Origin: a virus
Length of the DNA: 12,343 bases
Strand: one strand, 5' to 3'
Virus genome (UHGV): UHGV-0377305
How positions within the stretch are numbered: position 1 is the stretch's first letter; each line of letters opens with the position of its first letter. The notes under the pieces were generated by a model. It worked only from the letters and a program-made list of their open reading frames with translations. It ran no database searches and was not told where the DNA came from. Of this stretch, positions 5,453 to 12,343 are shown one piece after another. Position numbers and translations under genes: made by a program.

Positions 5453-6013
5453 ATGCTGATTGGCTATATACGCGTATCAACAAATGACCAGAACACAGGT
5501 TTACAAAGAAATGCGCTGGAATGTGCAGGATGTGAGCAGATTTTTGAAGACAAAATGAGTGGTAAAACGACGCAGCGGCCGGGACTGAAGCGGGCACTGA
5601 AGAAACTAAAACCCGGCGACACACTGATGGTCTGGAAACTGGACAGGCTGGGGCGCAGTATGCGCCACCTTGTTGCGCTGACAGATGAATTACAGCAACA
5701 GGGGATAAATTTTCGTAGTCTTACTGACAACATTGATACGTCAACCCCCATGGGGCGCTTCTTTTTTCACATAATGGGTGCGCTGGCAGAAATGGAGCGT
5801 GAATTGATTGTCGAACGGACACGGGCTGGTCTTGCTGCTGCCCGTGAAAGGGGACGAACCGGCGGCAGACCCCGTCGTCTCACGCAGGAACAATACGAGC
5901 AGGTCGGGCGTTTACTGGCCGGGGGTGTCAGCCGAAGACAGGTGGCACTTATTTTTGATATCGGCCTTTCAACCCTTTATCGTTATTATCCTGCGAGCGT
6001 TTCGGAAAAATAA
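5453..6013 (+). CDS. Serine site-specific DNA invertase (Gin/Pin/Cin/Hin family), second paralog
   Basis: ORF MLIGYIRVSTNDQNTGLQRNALECAGCEQIFEDK...DRLGRSMRHLV...GRFFFHIMGALAEMERELIVERTRAGLAAARERG..., with an SD AAGGAAGG upstream. It is about three-quarters identical to the 3326-3892 invertase by eye (not computed) and is transcribed away from the cassette region. Confidence 0.9.
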   Translation: MLIGYIRVSTNDQNTGLQRNALECAGCEQIFEDKMSGKTTQRPGLKRALKKLKPGDTLMVWKLDRLGRSMRHLVALTDELQQQGINFRSLTDNIDTSTPMGRFFFHIMGALAEMERELIVERTRAGLAAARERGRTGGRPRRLTQEQYEQVGRLLAGGVSRRQVALIFDIGLSTLYRYYPASVSEK

Positions 6014-6112: not shown

Positions 6113-8152
6113 ATGACGTCCAAATGGGTTCAACTATCATCAATGCCCGGAAACTTTACTGTTAAAGTTTCCGGTGGTACAGCGGCATTTCTTGAGGCTC
6201 CCTTTCCTCCGGCCGAAACAAAAGGAGGAATGACATTTGCTGACTGTCTCATCAGTTTTAATACACGGGATTGCCTGTGGGTAAGGCCAGTATCCGGTGA
6301 TCCGAGCGTGGAAATTACCGGTGCGGGTATTGGTGCTGTCATTCCGTTAAGTGCTGATGTTGCCGGTACTGCTGAACCGTCAGACTGGGATAATGCTGAA
6401 ACACATACCCGTCCGTCAGGAAATGAAACTGCTTCCAGCTCCCCTTCCTGGTATTACGTGGTGGTTCTTGCTGGTCAGTCAAACGGGATGGCCTACGGTG
6501 AAGGTCTGCCGCTGCCGGAGACATATGACCACCCCGAACCGCGTATTATGCAGTTAGCCCGTCGCAGTACAGTCACGCCGGGAGGTAAAGCCTGTCAGTA
6601 TAACGACATCATTCTGGCCGACCACTGTCTGCATGATGTGCAGGATATGAGTGGAAAAAATCACCCGAAAGCGGATGTGGCTAAAGGGCAATATGGCACC
6701 GTGGGTCAGGGGCTTCACATTGCCAAAAAACTGCTGCCGTTTATTCCGGCAGATGCGGGGATTCTGCTGGTTCCCTGCTGCCGTGGTGGTTCTGCATTCA
6801 CGGCGGGTGCTGACGGCACGTACAGTGACAGCACGGGTGCTTCAGAGGACTCAGCCCGCTGGGGTGTGGATAAGCCGCTGTATAAGGACTTAATCAGCCG
6901 GACAAAAGCGGCACTGGCGAAGAACCCGAAAAACCGCCTGCTTGCTGTGGTGTGGATGCAGGGCGAGTTTGATATTGATGCGAAGCCGACGGAGCATTCC
7001 GCGCTGTTTCTGGCGATGGTGGAAAAATTCCGCGCAGACCTGGCTGAACAGGCGGAACAGTGTACCGGTGGCAGTGCTGCTGGCGTTCCGTGGATTTGTG
7101 GCGATACCACGTATTTCTGGAAACAGAAAAACGAACAGGCATACCAGGCAATCTATGACGGCTACAAAAATAAAACAGATAAAAACATTCATTTCGTCCC
7201 ATTAATGACAGATGAAAATGGCGCGAATGTACCCACCAACAATCCGACAGAAGACCCGGATATTGAATCCATTGGTTATTACGGCTCAACGTGGCGTAAC
7301 AGTGCCGCCACCTGGACATCTGCGGGCCGGGCCAGCCATTTCAGTTCATGGGCACGTCGTGGGATTATTTCCGACCGTCTGGCCACGGCTGTTCTGACTC
7401 ATGCAGGGCGAACCACAGTAAAAGCCGATGTTCCATCTTCTGAAACTGAAGCACCAGTGCCGTCACCTTCAGAAACTGAAGCAGTAACCACAACACTGCT
7501 GTCTTACCGTGTCAGTGAGTCAGAAGGAAATCTGAAAGCCCAGGGCTGGGAGCCGGCTGGCGGTAAAGCTGAAATTATCAGTGATGCAGGAGGCACAGGT
7601 GGTAAGGCAATGAAACTGACCAAGGAAACAGGTAAATCATCCTGGTATCTGGATCATGATGCCGGTACTGGTGCTGAACTGCTGAAAAATGGTGGTTTAA
7701 TCAGTTGTCGTTTTAAAGTACCTGGCGACCTGGTGGCAAACCAGTATGTCATGGCGCTTTACTGGCCGGTTTCCTCTCTGCCGCAGGGTGTCACCCTGAC
7801 AGGGGATGCAGGGAATAATCTGCTGGCATCGTTCTACATCCAGACAGACGCAAAAGACCTGAATGTGATGCACCACAATGCAAAAGTGGCAACAAATAAC
7901 CAGAAACTGGGAACCTTTGGTGTATTTGATAATGAATGGCATACGCTGGCCTTCCGTTTTGCAGGAAATAACAGCCTTCAGGTTATTCCGGTTATTGATG
8001 GTCAGGATGGTGCCGCGTTTACCCTGACGCAGTCACCAGTAGGAACTTTCCCGGTGGACAAACTCCGCGTAACGGATATCACCAAAAATGCAACTTACCC
8101 GGTGCTGATTGACAGCATTGTGGTGGAAGTGAAAAAAGCGGTAACAGAATAA
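6113..8152 (+). CDS. Putative SGNH/sialate O-acetylesterase-domain protein (NanS / prophage NanS-p-like) with a C-terminal probable carbohydrate-binding domain
   Basis: 679-aa ORF. The central region carries VVVLAGQSNGMAYGEGLPLP...LLVPCCRGGSAFT...VVWMQGEFD...WICGDTTYFW, i.e. the GQSN block and downstream blocks typical of sialate O-acetylesterase (SASA/DUF303) domains. A Ser/Thr/Pro/Glu linker (SETEAPVPSPSETEA) precedes an approximately 230-aa C-terminal domain. Function is assigned from motifs only. Confidence 0.6.
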   Translation: MTSKWVQLSSMPGNFTVKVSGGTAAFLEAPFPPAETKGGMTFADCLISFNTRDCLWVRPVSGDPSVEITGAGIGAVIPLSADVAGTAEPSDWDNAETHTRPSGNETASSSPSWYYVVVLAGQSNGMAYGEGLPLPETYDHPEPRIMQLARRSTVTPGGKACQYNDIILADHCLHDVQDMSGKNHPKADVAKGQYGTVGQGLHIAKKLLPFIPADAGILLVPCCRGGSAFTAGADGTYSDSTGASEDSARWGVDKPLYKDLISRTKAALAKNPKNRLLAVVWMQGEFDIDAKPTEHSALFLAMVEKFRADLAEQAEQCTGGSAAGVPWICGDTTYFWKQKNEQAYQAIYDGYKNKTDKNIHFVPLMTDENGANVPTNNPTEDPDIESIGYYGSTWRNSAATWTSAGRASHFSSWARRGIISDRLATAVLTHAGRTTVKADVPSSETEAPVPSPSETEAVTTTLLSYRVSESEGNLKAQGWEPAGGKAEIISDAGGTGGKAMKLTKETGKSSWYLDHDAGTGAELLKNGGLISCRFKVPGDLVANQYVMALYWPVSSLPQGVTLTGDAGNNLLASFYIQTDAKDLNVMHHNAKVATNNQKLGTFGVFDNEWHTLAFRFAGNNSLQVIPVIDGQDGAAFTLTQSPVGTFPVDKLRVTDITKNATYPVLIDSIVVEVKKAVTE

Positions 8153-8158
8153 AAAAAA

Positions 8159-8187
8159 TCCCGCCGGTCATGATATGGCTGGCGGGA
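8159..8187. terminator. Hairpin after the esterase gene (A8 tract upstream; U-tract only on the minus strand)
   Basis: TCCCGCCGG-(11-nt loop)-CTGGCGGGA, a 9-bp stem with one G-U pair. On the plus strand it is preceded by AAAAAAAA and not followed by a T-run. On the minus strand it is followed by T8. It may act bidirectionally. Confidence 0.3.
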
Positions 8188-8301
8188 GCTACCTAACCCA
8201 TAAAGGAAAATAAAAATACTCCCGAAGGAGTAGTTACCAGTCACTTCGTCATGTTTTTACCCGATAACGAATTATGTAGTCAATATCAAAGGTAAGGTTA
8301 T

Positions 8302-8484
8302 ATGACATTCGTTCATACAATGCTGCTTTATTTCTGCGCTGTGGTCAGTGCGTTATATCTGGTGAGCGGCGGTTATAAGGTCATCAGAAATTATATTCGC
8401 CGCAAAATTGATGACGCAGCAGCCGAAAAGCTCAGTAAAACAGCACAGGCACCATCATCCCCAAACGACCCGACCCCGCTCTGA
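8302..8484 (+). CDS. Hypothetical small membrane protein (60 aa, one predicted TM helix)
   Basis: ATG start with AAGG upstream. Hydrophobic N-terminus MLLYFCAVVSALYLVSGG followed by a basic and polar tail. No family recognised. Confidence 0.5.
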   Translation: MTFVHTMLLYFCAVVSALYLVSGGYKVIRNYIRRKIDDAAAEKLSKTAQAPSSPNDPTPL

Positions 8485-8519
8485 TAACGGGGCAATATAC
8501 CTGCAAAAGGAGAATATTC

Positions 8520-8765
8520 ATGCCAGAGATTAAAGGCACGGTTACTGAAGAGCTTGTCAAACAGGCACTTTATTCTGAAGAAGTGAACCGCGTGCTGAAG
8601 GCGCAGGTTCGCAAGGATTTTGAGGCACAAATCGACGCATATGTTGATGAAGTGCTGGCCCGAATGGTTGGCCGTTCTCCGGCTGAAAACAGCACGGAAA
8701 ATGCTCCTCAACCCGTAGAGCAACCAGAGCCGGTTCAGCCCGGAACTGACGGTACTATGATGTAA
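8520..8765 (+). CDS. Hypothetical protein (81 aa, acidic Pro/Glu-rich C-terminus)
   Basis: Strong SD AAGGAG 8 nt upstream of the ATG, and a perfect hairpin immediately downstream. No family recognised. Confidence 0.6.
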   Translation: MPEIKGTVTEELVKQALYSEEVNRVLKAQVRKDFEAQIDAYVDEVLARMVGRSPAENSTENAPQPVEQPEPVQPGTDGTMM

Positions 8766-8774
8766 CAATACCGA

Positions 8775-8805
8775 CCGGCAGGTTTCCCTGCCGGGTGAAT
8801 TTGTT
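8775..8805 (+). terminator. Probable intrinsic terminator after the 81-aa ORF
   Basis: Perfect 8-bp stem CCGGCAGG-tttc-CCTGCCGG followed by the T-rich GTGAATTTGTT, 10 nt after the stop codon. Confidence 0.45.
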
Positions 8806-9119
8806 AATGCACGTTTTGTGTATTTTCCCTCTGGGGAGAACAGGCAGGGCATATCAGCATCCTGAAACAGGAAGCATTTTTTGGTTTGTATGTCTTGCCA
8901 TTTTGAGATCGAGAACGGCGATAGATGAGCTGTAAGGGAGTCTTACAGGCAGGGTAAACAGGCTCTTTATCCATGATAAAGATCTCCTTTTTATGCATCT
9001 CTGCTTTACAGGAGACCGGGGAATATCATAGGATACGCCACGAGCTCGAAGTAAAGCATTGATGCAAAATTGTCTAAATCGGCCCAGAATAGTTCGCGCT
9101 ATCTGGGTCGCCCTTTATG

Positions 9120-9155
9120 TATGTAGTATCCCATTGATTTGAAACATACTACATA
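9120..9155. promoter_or_regulatory. 10-bp inverted repeat with 16-bp spacer (candidate operator)
   Basis: TATGTAGTAT-(16 nt)-ATACTACATA in the AT-rich region about 230 bp upstream of com. Confidence 0.25.
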
Positions 9156-9197
9156 TACGCACAATCCTACCTTCACTGTATAAAAAGTCAATAAAAT

Positions 9198-9340
9198 GAT
9201 CATTTTATGATCGTTTTCACCACCTAACTCTTCGTTTTCTTTAAGTAAATAATCACCGCCCTGAATCATTGTTGATGACTTTTCAATCTATTTGTTGTAT
9301 CAATTAAACAAACCGAATCGATCGTTTTTGTCGATCGATT
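9198..9340. promoter_or_regulatory. GATC (Dam-site) cluster with palindromes upstream of com, a candidate methylation-sensitive control region
   Basis: Four GATC sites in about 140 bp (9198, 9209, 9320, 9333). Two sit in the palindrome AAAATGATCATTTT and its neighbour, and two in the 9-bp-arm inverted repeat AATCGATCG-tttttgt-CGATCGATT (9316-9340), about 45 bp upstream of the com ATG. This recalls the GATC/OxyR region of the Mu mom promoter. Confidence 0.35.
9293..9310 (+). promoter_or_regulatory. Candidate Ogr/Delta-type late-activator dyad (TGT-N12-ACA) upstream of com
   Basis: TGT-TGTATCAATTAA-ACA, centred about 82 nt upstream of the com ATG. This is the same dyad geometry as upstream of FI. 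Chance occurrence is possible. Confidence 0.3.
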
Positions 9341-9383
9341 GCATGAGAAAGGCATCAACAACAAAGCAGGAGGTTATGCGGCC

Positions 9384-9569
9384 ATGTATCGAAACATACG
9401 GTGCCGACACTGCAATAAGCTACTGGCACGGGCCAGTTTCAGTTATCTGGAAGTAAAATGTCCGCGCTGCAAAACCCTCAATCAAATCACATCTCAGAGC
9501 GCCACAGAGCACCCCACATACACAAGGAAATCCTGCCGTGGGGAACAAGAAACATTACTTTCAGTCTGA
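9384..9569 (+). CDS. com: Com-like zinc-ribbon translational activator (Mu Com family)
   Basis: 61-aa ORF MYRNIRCRHCNKLLARASFSYLEVKCPRCKTLNQITSQSATEHPTY... with the Com-type CxxC...CPRC zinc ribbon and an EHPT motif, as recalled for Mu Com. AGGAGG lies 9 nt upstream of the ATG. The 3' end overlaps the start of the downstream gene by 32 nt, as com overlaps mom in Mu. The track ORF begins at an upstream TTG (9339). Confidence 0.75.
   Translation: MYRNIRCRHCNKLLARASFSYLEVKCPRCKTLNQITSQSATEHPTYTRKSCRGEQETLLSV
9512..9543 (+). promoter_or_regulatory. Possible translation-inhibiting stem that sequesters the MTase GTG start (candidate Com target)
   Basis: CCCCAC (9512-9517) can pair with GTGGGG (9538-9543). 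The start codon lies in the 3' arm and the SD in the 20-nt loop. This is analogous in position to the stem-loop in mom mRNA that Com unwinds. The stem is only 6 bp. Confidence 0.3.
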
Positions 9570-10590
9570 TAAGTCACTAACCTATGGTTCAGTATGCAGT
9601 GGTATTGAAGCTGCGACAGTAGCCTGGAGCAATCTTGGCTGGAAAGCCAGATGGTTCAGTGAAATAGAGGACTTCCCGTCAACACTTCTTTCATATCGCT
9701 GGCCCCATATACCAAATCTTGGTGATATGGCTTTGCTTGCGCCTCGTATCAGGGATGGGCTTATTGAAGCACCAGATATTCTTGTAGGTGGAACTCCGTG
9801 TCAGGCATTCAGTATGTCAGGCAAACGAAAAGGCCTTTCAGATCCACGGGGGCAGTTAACACTGTCTTTTGTTGAACTGGCGAATCAGATAGATACCGTT
9901 CGGGCATCGCTCAATAAATCCCCCTCAATAATCGTATGGGAAAACGTCACAGGAGTTTTAAGTAGCCATGACAATGCATTCGGTCATTTTCTTGGTGCGC
10001 TGGCCGGAGCAGGTTGCGCATTACAGCCAGCAAGGAAAAGATGGGCAAACGCTGGTGTTGTGTCTGGACCATCGCGTATCGTCGCCTGGCGAGTACTTGA
10101 TGCCCAATATTTCGGAGTCGCCCAGGCTCGCAGAAGAGTGTTTGTTGTGGCAAGTGCTGGAAAAAGGCTCGATCCCGGAAAGGTATTATTTGAGTTCCCG
10201 CCTGTGTCGCAGGGCGATAAAAACTATTACGGAAAGAAGAAAAAATCCGAATCCCTTCTTGATCAAGGCATTGAAGGAAAATTGCACCGATATTGCCTTG
10301 AAGCATTGCCAAAACGAACAGGCACAGTAATAGCTGGCTATAACGGAACAACTAACCAGGACATGACTATGTCTGGTGGGCTCATAGTTGAAAGAGCGCC
10401 ATATTCAAGGGTTCGTAGGTTGACGCCAACCGAATGCGAGAGGCTACAAGGTTTTCCCGATGGATATACAGATATTCCATGGAAAAATTCATCTCCAGCT
10501 CATCGTTATAAGGCCATTGGAAATTCAATGCCTGTACCGGTCATGAAATGGATTGGTCGAAGAATACAGGAAGCGTTAAACGAAGTTTAA
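9538..10590 (+). CDS. DNA (cytosine-5)-methyltransferase
   Basis: 350-aa ORF with canonical C5-MTase blocks: GGTPCQAFSMSG (PCQ catalytic motif IV), IIVWENVTG (ENV motif VI), QARRRVFVVA (motif VIII), RRLTPTECERLQGFPDGYT and AIGNSMPVPVMKWI (C-terminal motifs). The N-terminal GSVCSGIEAA stands in place of motif I. GTG start at 9538 with AAGGAAA 8-9 nt upstream; no alternative start exists in frame after the upstream stop at 9454. Confidence 0.88.
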   Translation: MGNKKHYFQSDKSLTYGSVCSGIEAATVAWSNLGWKARWFSEIEDFPSTLLSYRWPHIPNLGDMALLAPRIRDGLIEAPDILVGGTPCQAFSMSGKRKGLSDPRGQLTLSFVELANQIDTVRASLNKSPSIIVWENVTGVLSSHDNAFGHFLGALAGAGCALQPARKRWANAGVVSGPSRIVAWRVLDAQYFGVAQARRRVFVVASAGKRLDPGKVLFEFPPVSQGDKNYYGKKKKSESLLDQGIEGKLHRYCLEALPKRTGTVIAGYNGTTNQDMTMSGGLIVERAPYSRVRRLTPTECERLQGFPDGYTDIPWKNSSPAHRYKAIGNSMPVPVMKWIGRRIQEALNEV

Positions 10591-10608
10591 ACCTAAGCAA
10601 AAGACATT

Positions 10609-10914
10609 ATGAAGTTGGTTTTTGTGCCGTTAAAAGATGTCTTTAAGGAGTGCAAAGGAAAGCGCCAATTTAGTATCAAAAAAGATGCTTATCGGCGCTT
10701 TTCATCGGTATCAAATGAAATGCAAATCTGTATCAAAAAAATCGCCGCGCTATATACCCGAAAAGAAAACGTATTTACCAGTTGGGTGATGCGATTGCTG
10801 ATTGTTGTAAGTCTCGCCTGGACGGGGTGGGCTATTACCCTGGTCTTTTATCTACTGACCGTTATTGCCTTCTGGATCACCCGTAATCAGATGGCGCAAC
10901 AGGTAGCAGCATGA
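10609..10914 (+). CDS. Hypothetical protein; the C-terminal hydrophobic part may be a LysA-like remnant fused to unrelated N-terminal sequence
   Basis: 101-aa ORF. The N-terminal half is AT-rich, hydrophilic and lacks a clear SD. The C-terminal roughly 40 aa (WVMRLLIVVSLAWTGWAITLVFYLLTVIAFWI) is membrane-like and ends overlapping the lysB start (ATGA), the position lysA occupies in P2. Confidence 0.4.
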   Translation: MKLVFVPLKDVFKECKGKRQFSIKKDAYRRFSSVSNEMQICIKKIAALYTRKENVFTSWVMRLLIVVSLAWTGWAITLVFYLLTVIAFWITRNQMAQQVAA

Positions 10915-11339
10915 ACCGGTTACTGCTGGTTGTGCTGGCGTTATTACTGGCGGCGCTGGGCTGGCAGACGTGGCGGCTGGCTGATGCCAGCCAGACCATC
11001 AGCACGCAGGCAGACGAGCTGCAGAGCAAAAGCCAGGCACTGGCAAAGAGCAACAGCCAGCTTATCAGCCTGTCTATTCTGACTGAAACCAATAACCGGG
11101 AGCAGGCGCGGCTCTATGCCGAAGCAGAACAGACCAGCGCGCTGCTGAGACAACGACAACACCGGATCGAGGAACTGAAACGTGAGAACGAGGATTTACG
11201 CCGCTGGGCTGATACTCCTTTGCCTGCTGACATTATCCGGCTGCGGGAACGCCCCACACTCACCGGAGGTGCAGCTTACCGTCAGTGGTTGTCCGCGAGT
11301 GACGCCGTGTCGGCTGGATCAGGCAGCGCCGCGCACTAA
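10911..11339 (+). CDS. lysB: LysB (Rz-like inner-membrane spanin)
   Basis: 142-aa ORF with an N-terminal TM helix (LLLVVLALLLAALGW) followed by a coiled-coil, Gln/Glu/Arg-rich periplasmic region. It lies upstream of R and S with lysC embedded in the +1 frame, the P2 arrangement. Confidence 0.75.
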   Translation: MNRLLLVVLALLLAALGWQTWRLADASQTISTQADELQSKSQALAKSNSQLISLSILTETNNREQARLYAEAEQTSALLRQRQHRIEELKRENEDLRRWADTPLPADIIRLRERPTLTGGAAYRQWLSASDAVSAGSGSAAH

Positions 11340-11472
11340 CGGTGATCTGAATGCGTTGCTGGATGAAACGGAGGCCGCCTGGGCGGTCTGTGCAGACAAA
11401 GTGGATATGATTATTGCGTGTCAGGAGCGAAACAGTGAACAAACCACAATCCCTGCGCCACGCCCTCAATAA
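11182..11472 (+). CDS. lysC: LysC (Rz1-like outer-membrane lipoprotein spanin), embedded in and extending beyond lysB
   Basis: 96-aa ORF in a different frame from lysB, with signal peptide and lipobox (LLCLLTLSG-C) and a Pro-rich mature part. GTG start. Confidence 0.7.
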   Translation: MRTRIYAAGLILLCLLTLSGCGNAPHSPEVQLTVSGCPRVTPCRLDQAAPRTNGDLNALLDETEAAWAVCADKVDMIIACQERNSEQTTIPAPRPQ

Positions 11473-11866
11473 AGCAGTGCCTTATGTCCGCAATAACCCG
11501 GACAAACTGCATCTGTTTGTGGATAACGGTTCGCTGGTTGCCACGGGGGCCAGCTCCATGTCGTGGGAGTACCGTTACACCCTGAACGCGGTGATTGAGG
11601 ATTTCAGCGGCGACCAGAATCTGCTGATGGCCCCGGTTTTGCTGTGGCTGCGTGATAACCAGCCCGATGCCATCAATAACCCGGCGTTACGGGAAAAACT
11701 ATTCACCTTTGAGGTGGATATTCTGCGCAACGATGTCTGTGATATCAGCCTTAACCTGCAACTGACGGAGCGTGTGCTGGTCAGCACTGACGGTAGTGTG
11801 TCGAGCGTTGAAGCTATAGCGGAACCTGATGAACCTGAAGAAATGTGGACGGTGAAACGTGGCTGA
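11435..11866 (+). CDS. R: Tail completion protein R (P2 gpR-like)
   Basis: VNKPQSLRHALNKAVPYVRNNPDKLHLFVDNGS...LNAVIEDFSGDQNLLMAPVLLWLRDNQPD...LQLTERVLVS resembles P2 gpR as recalled. The likely start is GTG 11435 with AGGAG 8 nt upstream; the track ORF starts at TTG 11414. Confidence 0.85.
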   Translation: MNKPQSLRHALNKAVPYVRNNPDKLHLFVDNGSLVATGASSMSWEYRYTLNAVIEDFSGDQNLLMAPVLLWLRDNQPDAINNPALREKLFTFEVDILRNDVCDISLNLQLTERVLVSTDGSVSSVEAIAEPDEPEEMWTVKRG

Positions 11867-12305
11867 ACTGCAGAAAGTGGACGACTGGCTGAGTGCCTTG
11901 CTGGCGAATCTGGAACCAGCCGCCAGAAGCCGCATGATGCGCCAGCTGGCGCAGGAACTGCGCCGGACACAGCAGCAGAACATCAGGATGCAACGCAATC
12001 CTGATGGCAGCAGCTATGAACCGAGGCGAGTAACAGCACGCAGTAAAAAAGGCCGTATCAAACGGCAGATGTTTACAAAACTTCGCACCACAAAATACCT
12101 GAAAACCGCCGCCAGCGAGGATTCTGCCAGCGTGCAGTTTGAAGGTAAGGTGCAGCGCATTGCCCGCGTTCACCATTATGGCCTGCGTGATCGCGTCAGC
12201 CGCAAAGGACCGGAGGTCCGTTACGCAGAGCGTCGCCTTCTGGGTGTAAATGATGATGTTGAGGCAATGACCCGCGACATGATTCTGCAATGGTTGGCGG
12301 GGTGA
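11859..12305 (+). CDS. S: Tail completion protein S (P2 gpS-like)
   Basis: MAELQKVDDWLSALLANLEPAARSRMMRQLAQELRRTQQQNIRMQRNPDGS... resembles P2 gpS. The GTG start overlaps the R stop (GTGGCTGA), which suggests translational coupling. Confidence 0.85.
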   Translation: MAELQKVDDWLSALLANLEPAARSRMMRQLAQELRRTQQQNIRMQRNPDGSSYEPRRVTARSKKGRIKRQMFTKLRTTKYLKTAASEDSASVQFEGKVQRIARVHHYGLRDRVSRKGPEVRYAERRLLGVNDDVEAMTRDMILQWLAG

Positions 12306-12343
12306 TTTTTGTATCAGCAGTGATACAAGTTGCAGCACTGCCG

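Follow-up and report, generated by a model that had tools for sequence, protein, structure and literature searches.

Does host adenine methylation control the synthesis of a cytosine methyltransferase encoded by a prophage? The question is raised by a stretch of DNA of 12,343 nucleotides (UHGV virus genome UHGV-0377305), hereafter the window, a term that indicates the whole stretch analysed, in which Dam (GATC) sites are grouped upstream of com and of the DNA-modification gene that follows it. In phage Mu, mom is under the control of Dam and OxyR (PMC3378877, PMC2909390) and, by analogy with it, a preliminary description of the sequence proposed that the GATC sites, embedded in palindromes, are a methylation-dependent switch of the com-methyltransferase operon.

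The prophage, com and its methyltransferase

RefSeq annotation and Pfam identify the window as the right end of a Mu-like prophage of E. coli, and a stretch of E. coli chromosome matches it at 100% identity; close relatives are present in 233 of 5,426 complete E. coli genomes (about 4%). The genes and the signals required for their translation are the following, in window order.

First in the gene order: baseplate and tail-fibre genes (RefSeq/Pfam)
5453-6013: Gin-like recombinase gene (RefSeq/Pfam)
6113-8765: three inserted genes (DUF6645/SASA esterase, DUF1378, DUF826), between the Gin-like recombinase gene and com
9368-9373, plus strand: Shine-Dalgarno sequence of com, AGGAGG, 10 nt upstream of the ATG at 9384
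9384-9569, plus strand: com, homologue of a zinc-ribbon translational activator (PF10122, E=5.8e-13; RefSeq; PHROG 'gpCom control of modification')
9512-9543, plus strand: predicted stem CCCCAC (9512-9517)/GTGGGG (9538-9543), which masks the GTG start of the methyltransferase gene
9538-10590, plus strand: C5 cytosine DNA methyltransferase gene (PF00145, E=1.6e-42; RefSeq), in the place occupied by mom in Mu

As in Mu, com is followed by an overlapping DNA-modification gene whose GTG start is located in a CCCAC/GTGGG-type stem; in the window the overlap is 32 nt and both reading frames are intact. Since the GTG is predicted to be masked by a stem, like that of Mu mom, the methyltransferase should still depend on Com for its translation. 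In contrast, the payload is a C5 cytosine methyltransferase and not Mom, which is responsible for adenine modification in Mu, and about 3.3 kb of extra genes are located between the gin-like recombinase gene and com. In many relatives, mom takes the place of the methyltransferase gene, behind upstream DNA and a com that are the same as in the window; O157:H7 strains too have the mom version. In particular, the Mom and the C5-methyltransferase versions are identical through GTGGGGAACA (9538-9547, the first 3-4 codons) and then diverge at once, and this swap point is observed in two independent com lineages. Since the versions diverge right after GTGGGGAACA and the GTG is paired, the portable unit consists of the operator described below, com and the masked start codon, whereas the enzyme is swappable.

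The insert at 6113-8765 encodes a 679-aa DUF6645 protein with a SASA sialate O-acetylesterase-like domain, together with DUF1378 and DUF826 proteins; none of these is present in Mu and the block looks like inserted cargo. On the other side, the Mu-like prophage ends soon after the methyltransferase gene (window about 10590-12343; 12001-20851 in locus L001) and its flanks are tail genes of a lambdoid prophage, namely minor tail protein L, then a copy of ompC and then the tape measure gene. Judging from these lambdoid tail genes, the Mu-like element seems to have inserted itself by transposition in another prophage, and the same 'inserted Mu-like phage' is annotated in two Stx phage records. A search of Rfam with the whole window gave no match at gathering thresholds, the matches in 8750-9600 being at chance level alone (E about 1).

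The four GATC sites and the divergent promoter

The four GATC sites reported within about 140 bp upstream of com are all present, at positions 9198, 9209, 9320 and 9333, and the accompanying chance expectation of about 0.5 was right, being about 0.3-0.5 GATC per 140 bp locally. By itself, the density of the cluster is not significant: the whole window is poor in GATC (29 found vs 41 expected), and the chance of four sites in 140 bp anywhere in it is P about 0.09 with 29 sites and about 0.29 with 41 sites. The GATC-N9-GATC arrangement is seen once in the window against 0.12 expected, and other perfect 9-bp inverted repeats with short spacers exist elsewhere in it. The true signal is conservation together with identity to known operators; site density is not. 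The four sites are two separate things, a proximal pair (9320, 9333) and a distal pair (9198, 9209), the latter being located as follows.

9164-9191, minus strand: divergent promoter TTGACT (9191-9186)-16-TAGGAT (9169-9164), called by promoter scan, with predicted start at about 9157
9191-9212: distal pair, formed by an 18-bp perfect palindrome, ATAAAATGATCATTTTAT (9191-9208, GATC 9198), and then by GATC 9209

The two distal sites had been described as embedded in one perfect palindrome; this is correct for GATC 9198, which is inside the 18-bp palindrome, and not for GATC 9209, which is in an adjacent direct copy, ATGATCGTTTT. Both sites adjoin the -35 hexamer of the divergent promoter, at about -41 and -52 from the predicted minus-strand start. 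They are both kept in near-identical relatives only, the L035/L036 group having just one of them and L039/L041 neither. The minus-strand promoter is kept in three diverged lineages, with the sequence TTGACT-16-TAAGAT in L035/L036 and TTGACG...TATAAT in L039/L041. The distal pair, which is not conserved with com and lies at the -35 of a minus-strand promoter, was consequently removed from the com switch to which it had been attributed: it borders the -35 of the divergent promoter, as an element of its own outside the com gate. In most relatives (L006, L013, L022 and others), an extra GATC overlaps the minus-strand -10 (TAGGATC), at the position where the window reads TAGGATTG (9164-9170); judging from this overlap, the divergent promoter itself may be Dam-sensitive in the relatives with TAGGATC.

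The predicted minus-strand transcript, from about 9157 on, contains a hairpin at 9155-9120, a second hairpin at about 9105-9082 and a zinc-ribbon ORF at 8974-8804. The first hairpin is conserved also in L035, L036, L039 and L041, with arms TATGTAGTAT/ATACTACATA and a variable 16-nt loop; the region may correspond to a 5' UTR or to a small RNA, and the hairpins have no Rfam match. The zinc-ribbon-like ORF at 8974-8804 (minus strand; about 55 aa, MDKEPV-C/Y-PAC...CPAC) is conserved upstream of com in diverged Mu-like lineages and belongs to no Pfam or PHROG family. The window has a Tyr for the first Cys of the first CxxC, and the zinc-ribbon protein may be defective here because of this Cys-to-Tyr change. 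The 'frameshifted hypothetical protein' annotated by RefSeq at 8804-9269 (minus strand) was considered as an explanation of the distal pair and rejected, its frame varying from 56 to 154 aa among near-identical relatives. The 56-aa ORF, which is the N-terminus of this pseudogene, matches phrog_26524; the 'frameshifted' ORF is probably an annotation artefact and not a gene.

The proximal inverted repeat, known OxyR operators and conservation

The inverted repeat with 9-bp arms and an N7 spacer, already noticed upstream of com, is exact (9316-9324/9332-9340) and is a single occurrence in about 50 kb of prophage and flanks, with up to 3 mismatches allowed. Its similarity to OxyR sites was scored against the published consensus, ATAGnTnnnAnCTAT, in which 10 positions are defined per half-site and 20 per pair; this counting of consensus matches is crude, and the A+T content of the region, 64%, inflates the scores. 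The features of the proximal element are the following.

9268-9282: possible third OxyR-like half-site H0, ATTGTTGATGACTTT, 7/10, 22 bp upstream of H1, without GATC
9290-9304: predicted OxyR half-site H1, ATTTGTTGTATCAAT, 7/10, 31 bp upstream of H2
9316-9340: perfect inverted repeat AATCGATCG-TTTTTGT-CGATCGATT, with GATC at 9320-9323 and 9333-9336, 13 bp start to start
9321-9335: predicted OxyR half-site H2, ATCGTTTTTGTCGAT, 7/10, both GATC overlapping its ends

GATC 9320 and GATC 9333 are at both ends of one 15-bp half-site with an ATCG-N7-CGAT core, in the same register as in Mu, agn43 and gtr; in this register the validated sites score 7 (Mu), 8 (agn43) and 8 (gtr) of 10. With a 16-nt linker, the stretch 9290-9335 matches 14 of the 20 positions and is the sole best OxyR-consensus match in the 12.3-kb window, the runner-up having 12, and at the conventional 7-nt linker spacing Mu reaches 13/20 and agn43 14/20. 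The best match of the window at this conventional spacing is 9268-9304 (14/20), which comprises H0; the evidence for H0 is weak because of the same A+T richness. GATC I, which is part of the upstream half-site (its 3' end) in Mu, in P2-like phages and in agn43, is replaced by TATC in H1, and the window operator has therefore two GATC sites. As far as its sequence can tell, the proximal element has the features expected of a Dam-sensitive OxyR operator.

In a base-by-base alignment the repeat corresponds to GATC II/III of the Mu mom regulatory region, in which Dam relieves the repression by OxyR; Mu reads AATCGATCG-GTAATACA-GATCGATT, its GATC II and III are likewise 13 bp apart and an upstream half-site is 31 bp away; the putative OxyR footprint in Mu is here positioned from the sequence. 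Mu differs in having three GATC sites (18 + 13 bp spacing) instead of two, and in the distance from the last GATC to the com ATG, which is 77 bp in Mu and 51 bp in the window, the interval being 26-27 bp shorter here. Moreover, the TTAT-N6-ATAA C-binding dyad and the T-run are absent between the window operator and com, the Mu sequence GATTATGCCCCAATAACC is without counterpart in the window, and the weak promoter of Mu has a 19-bp spacer. The analogy with Mu mom is thus retained as regards the homology of the proximal pair to GATC II/III, and given up as regards the number of GATC sites, two and not three, and the layout relative to com.

Dam-sensitive OxyR binding has been demonstrated by experiment at agn43 and at P22 gtr, whose sites are nearly identical to the repeat. 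In agn43 (flu) of E. coli K-12, a chromosomal adhesin gene with proven phase variation, the corresponding sequence is ATCGATCGTTTATATCGATCGAT, and its methylation-sensitive half-site, ATCGATCG-TTTATAT-CGATCGAT, differs very little from ATCGATCG-TTTTTGT-CGATCGAT of the window. The upstream half-site of agn43, ATAGAATAAAACGAT (8/10), is at a 32-bp offset, over the -10 hexamer of this gene; unlike the window, agn43 contains three GATC sites, with an operator placed at and just downstream of the transcription start. In P22 gtr, the half-sites A and C (AATTGATCGGTAACAACGATCAATT and ATTGATCGCTTGTATCGATCAAA) are 9-bp-arm inverted repeats with two GATC 13 bp apart, and the B half-site, without GATC, is 32 bp from A and from C. 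In this system, two GATC 13 bp apart in one half-site suffice for Dam methylation to abolish OxyR binding, and the occupation of the promoter-proximal site determines low expression (PMC2909390). A second GATC-bearing half-site (A) makes gtr bistable, whereas H0 of the window is without GATC and has a 22-bp spacing; in sequence, the known layout most like that of the window is the pair formed by the half-sites B+C of gtr, next to its promoter.

Com-relative loci were collected from viral contigs (80 loci) and from genomes (80 loci). GATC-N9-GATC is present upstream of com in at least 6 diverged lineages, at 64-65 bp from the com ATG in four lineages and at 70-103 bp in others, with flanks that share about 33-37% pairwise identity between lineages, near random. 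Despite this drift of the flanks, the non-GATC core positions are kept together with AT at -30/-29 and -17/-16, the ends of the upstream half-site, and in each of the lineages examined the upstream partner half-site is offset by 31 or 32 bp. In the lineage of the window, represented by 15 distinct sequences, both half-sites are invariant and the linker 9309-9315 and positions 9341-9356 vary most.

The enzymes encoded behind operator and com are Mom (PF25680), C5 methyltransferases (PF00145) and N6/N4 methyltransferases (PF01555), and the operator is found upstream of com in both Mu-like and P2-like phages. In P2-like phages (e.g. Escherichia phage Chuche), com precedes a swapped-in methyltransferase, as in the window, although of the N6/N4 type, and the enterobacterial ones share the GATC operator, with GATC spacing of 18 + 13 bp as in Mu. 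A com homologue precedes a swapped-in DNA methyltransferase also in FluMu hin1523, Pnm1 and B3, cassettes in which this operator is not present (PMC3299994); unlike the window, the com cassettes of Haemophilus, Neisseria and Acinetobacter have no GATC operator.

A scan of one genome per species detected the operator in 4 Enterobacterales loci (Citrobacter, Salmonella, Apirhabdus and one Enterobacteriaceae); the 52 loci with a non-enterobacterial label, among which are those of Haemophilus, Acinetobacter, Neisseria and Methylophaga, are all without it. Dam and OxyR are both present in E. coli, and both are also present in Haemophilus. The operator occurs in hosts with Dam and OxyR, the window being in an E. 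coli chromosome and the loci found by the scan being of Enterobacterales only; since com loci of Haemophilus are without it despite Dam and OxyR, the operator is lineage-specific and not an obligatory partner of com. Conservation and host range therefore argue against a phage-specific regulator, an autoregulation by the downstream enzyme and chance; the same results point to a host factor common to enterobacteria, identified by the sequence as OxyR, with Dam as its antagonist.

Two loci of the collection have fewer GATC sites. L090 (1340-1500), which is among the 52 with the label 'Vagococcus', contains an enterobacterial P2-like com cassette in which three GATCGAT repeats are collapsed to one, apparently by a deletion between repeats, and the label suggests contamination or misbinning. 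In L051, GATC II is lost through point changes (CCGAACGAT).

Candidate com promoters, the proposed gate and its alternatives

The promoter consensus scan called no plus-strand promoter near com. Two candidates can be proposed from the sequence.

9275-9303, plus strand: alternative candidate promoter ATGACT-17-TATCAA, with -10 at 9298-9303
9353-9358, plus strand: candidate -10 hexamer CATCAA, with predicted start at about 9365 and GATC at -45 and -32

The distance from the G of the last GATC to the hexamer at 9353-9358 is 20 bp. At the equivalent position close relatives have TATCAT or TATCAA, TATCAT being that of O157-type relatives; CATCAA is a poor candidate, and the -10 equivalent in the window lineage is decayed. 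In gtr, TACACT, located 21 bp after the G of GATC4, can be read as the -10 hexamer, a reading that fits the mapped start 33 bp downstream of GATC4 (PMC2909390). In the same promoter GATC3 is at -46 and GATC4 at -33 (PMC2909390), a geometry like that predicted for the window (-45/-32). The alternative promoter belongs to a block kept in the L007 and L009 lineages, with the version ATGACA-17-TATCAA in L009, and would set the palindrome at about +6 to +30, in an agn43-like position. P2-like phages have a strong terminator before the cassette and, unlike the window, an evident extended -10 (TGnTATCAT) immediately downstream of GATC III, the operator overlapping the -35 and the spacer of this promoter; in the L034 group, which is another Mu-like lineage, TATACT is at nearly the same place as the P2-like -10. 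With either candidate com promoter, the operator would be placed where it can repress.

The locus is best read as a Dam/OxyR gate on the com-methyltransferase operon because of the homology with Mu and of the match to the validated agn43 and gtr sites. The proximal palindrome is thus probably the methylation-sensitive half of an OxyR operator (9290-9335) of this operon; of the Dam-dependent switch originally proposed, the palindrome next to com is supported by the sequence, and the distal pair is lost. In the predicted operator, two half-sites of 15 bp are offset by 31 bp. It would be bound by an OxyR tetramer as long as the adenines of GATC 9320 and 9333 carry no methyl groups, and probably in the hemimethylated state too; the tetramer would cover the -35 and the spacer of a weak com promoter that starts at about 9365 or, if the upstream candidate is the promoter, the initial 30 nt of the transcript. 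In both cases the transcription of com would be blocked; repression is in fact the expected sign because an OxyR tetramer on 9290-9335 would prevent RNA polymerase from working at either promoter. Full Dam methylation would keep OxyR off and make the operon transcribable, and Com would then free the GTG start of the C5 methyltransferase from its stem. In this scheme OxyR binding, methylation sensitivity, promoter position and repression as the direction of control are all deduced from the sequence.

The element could also be an inherited relic that moves with the com module and no longer controls anything in this prophage, which is unlikely. A relic would fit with two GATC being too few or with a decay of the promoter, and GATC I is lost, the -10 candidate is CATCAA instead of the TATCAT of O157-type relatives and the adjacent small minus-strand ORF has a Cys-to-Tyr change. 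Against it, the half-sites are invariant in 15 distinct close relatives in which neighbouring bases are freely variable, gtr loses OxyR binding by the methylation of just two GATC in one half-site, and the reading frames of com and of the methyltransferase gene are intact.

It is decidedly improbable that the palindrome is the site of a phage regulator, a late activator of the Mor/C family or a repressor, and not of host OxyR. With a com start at about 9365 the palindrome would be centred at about -37, near the position at which Mu C binds its 16-bp dyad, centred at -43.5 (PMC2582627). The prophage has a gene for a Mor/C-family protein, adjoining the lysis genes, but its product is just 39% identical to Mu C. 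In addition, there is no second copy of the motif, with up to 3 mismatches allowed, in 31 kb that include other late operons, and the regions upstream of the lys and head protease genes have no similar motif. As for a site of a Mor/C-family activator, no Mu-type C-binding dyad is recognisable between the last GATC and com, and no shared late-activator motif was found by comparing the upstream regions of the prophage lys and head protease genes with Mu Plys. The motif is instead present upstream of com in P2-like phages, which use a late activator different from that of Mu, and at agn43 and gtr, where there is no such phage protein.

There is very little probability that the operator is the target of the methyltransferase itself, which would regulate its own synthesis by self-methylation, or that it is read by a SeqA-like, GATC-sensitive host factor. 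Some methyltransferases regulate their own promoters, two GATC about one helical turn apart suit SeqA binding, and the arms of the repeat contain CGATCG and ATCGAT. However, the enzymes encoded behind this site belong to three unrelated families, and one of them, Mom, is no site-specific methyltransferase; the motif is also at agn43 and gtr, without such an enzyme, while SeqA would leave unexplained the conserved upstream half-site without GATC.

Hardly credible, finally, is a nucleic-acid structure (5'-UTR hairpin, minus-strand terminator or cruciform) with incidental GATC sites: the transcript would fold as a 9-bp hairpin and a terminator scan flags the minus strand, with a 9-bp stem and then CGGTTTGTTT, but the stability of the fold is no better than that of shuffled sequence (z = -0.93), no minus-strand gene ends at the repeat, whose minus-strand tail is weak, and the lineages keep the GATC sites and their 13-bp spacing and not the stem complementarity, the Mu arms CGATCG/AGATCG being non-complementary. 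The scan call of a weak minus-strand terminator was rejected for the same reasons.

The Dam/OxyR mechanism of Mu mom, agn43 and gtr is known and is extended here, the mechanism itself not being new. Here this familiar switch would guard a cytosine methyltransferase; the searchable literature contains no paper on the regulation of com-methyltransferase cassettes by Dam and OxyR, or of the com region of the O157 Mu-like prophage. If the Dam/OxyR gate is true, host adenine methylation controls a prophage cytosine methyltransferase and two DNA methylation systems are linked. Operator, com and the first few codons move jointly between Mu-like and P2-like phages and guard three unrelated enzyme families; such a transferable gate would explain why methylome surveys generally find these prophage methyltransferases silent, and suggests dam or oxyR status as the condition for switching them on.

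In heritable phase-variation switches of the agn43, gtr and opvAB kind, OxyR shields the GATC sites from Dam and so maintains ON and OFF lineages. In lysogens, by analogy with agn43 and gtr, the operator may also set com and the orphan methyltransferase heritably ON or OFF from cell to cell, a doubtful possibility. Such behaviour seems most likely in the P2-like versions, in which a self-sufficient TGnTATCAT promoter is under the operator. If this were true, 6mA at two GATC sites would decide, lineage by lineage, whether a second writer (5mC, or 6mA/4mC elsewhere) is made, and the methylome would be switched by Dam and not by repeat slippage. More widely, operator, com and masked start would then be a portable safety cassette for toxic DNA-modification enzymes in enterobacterial phages.
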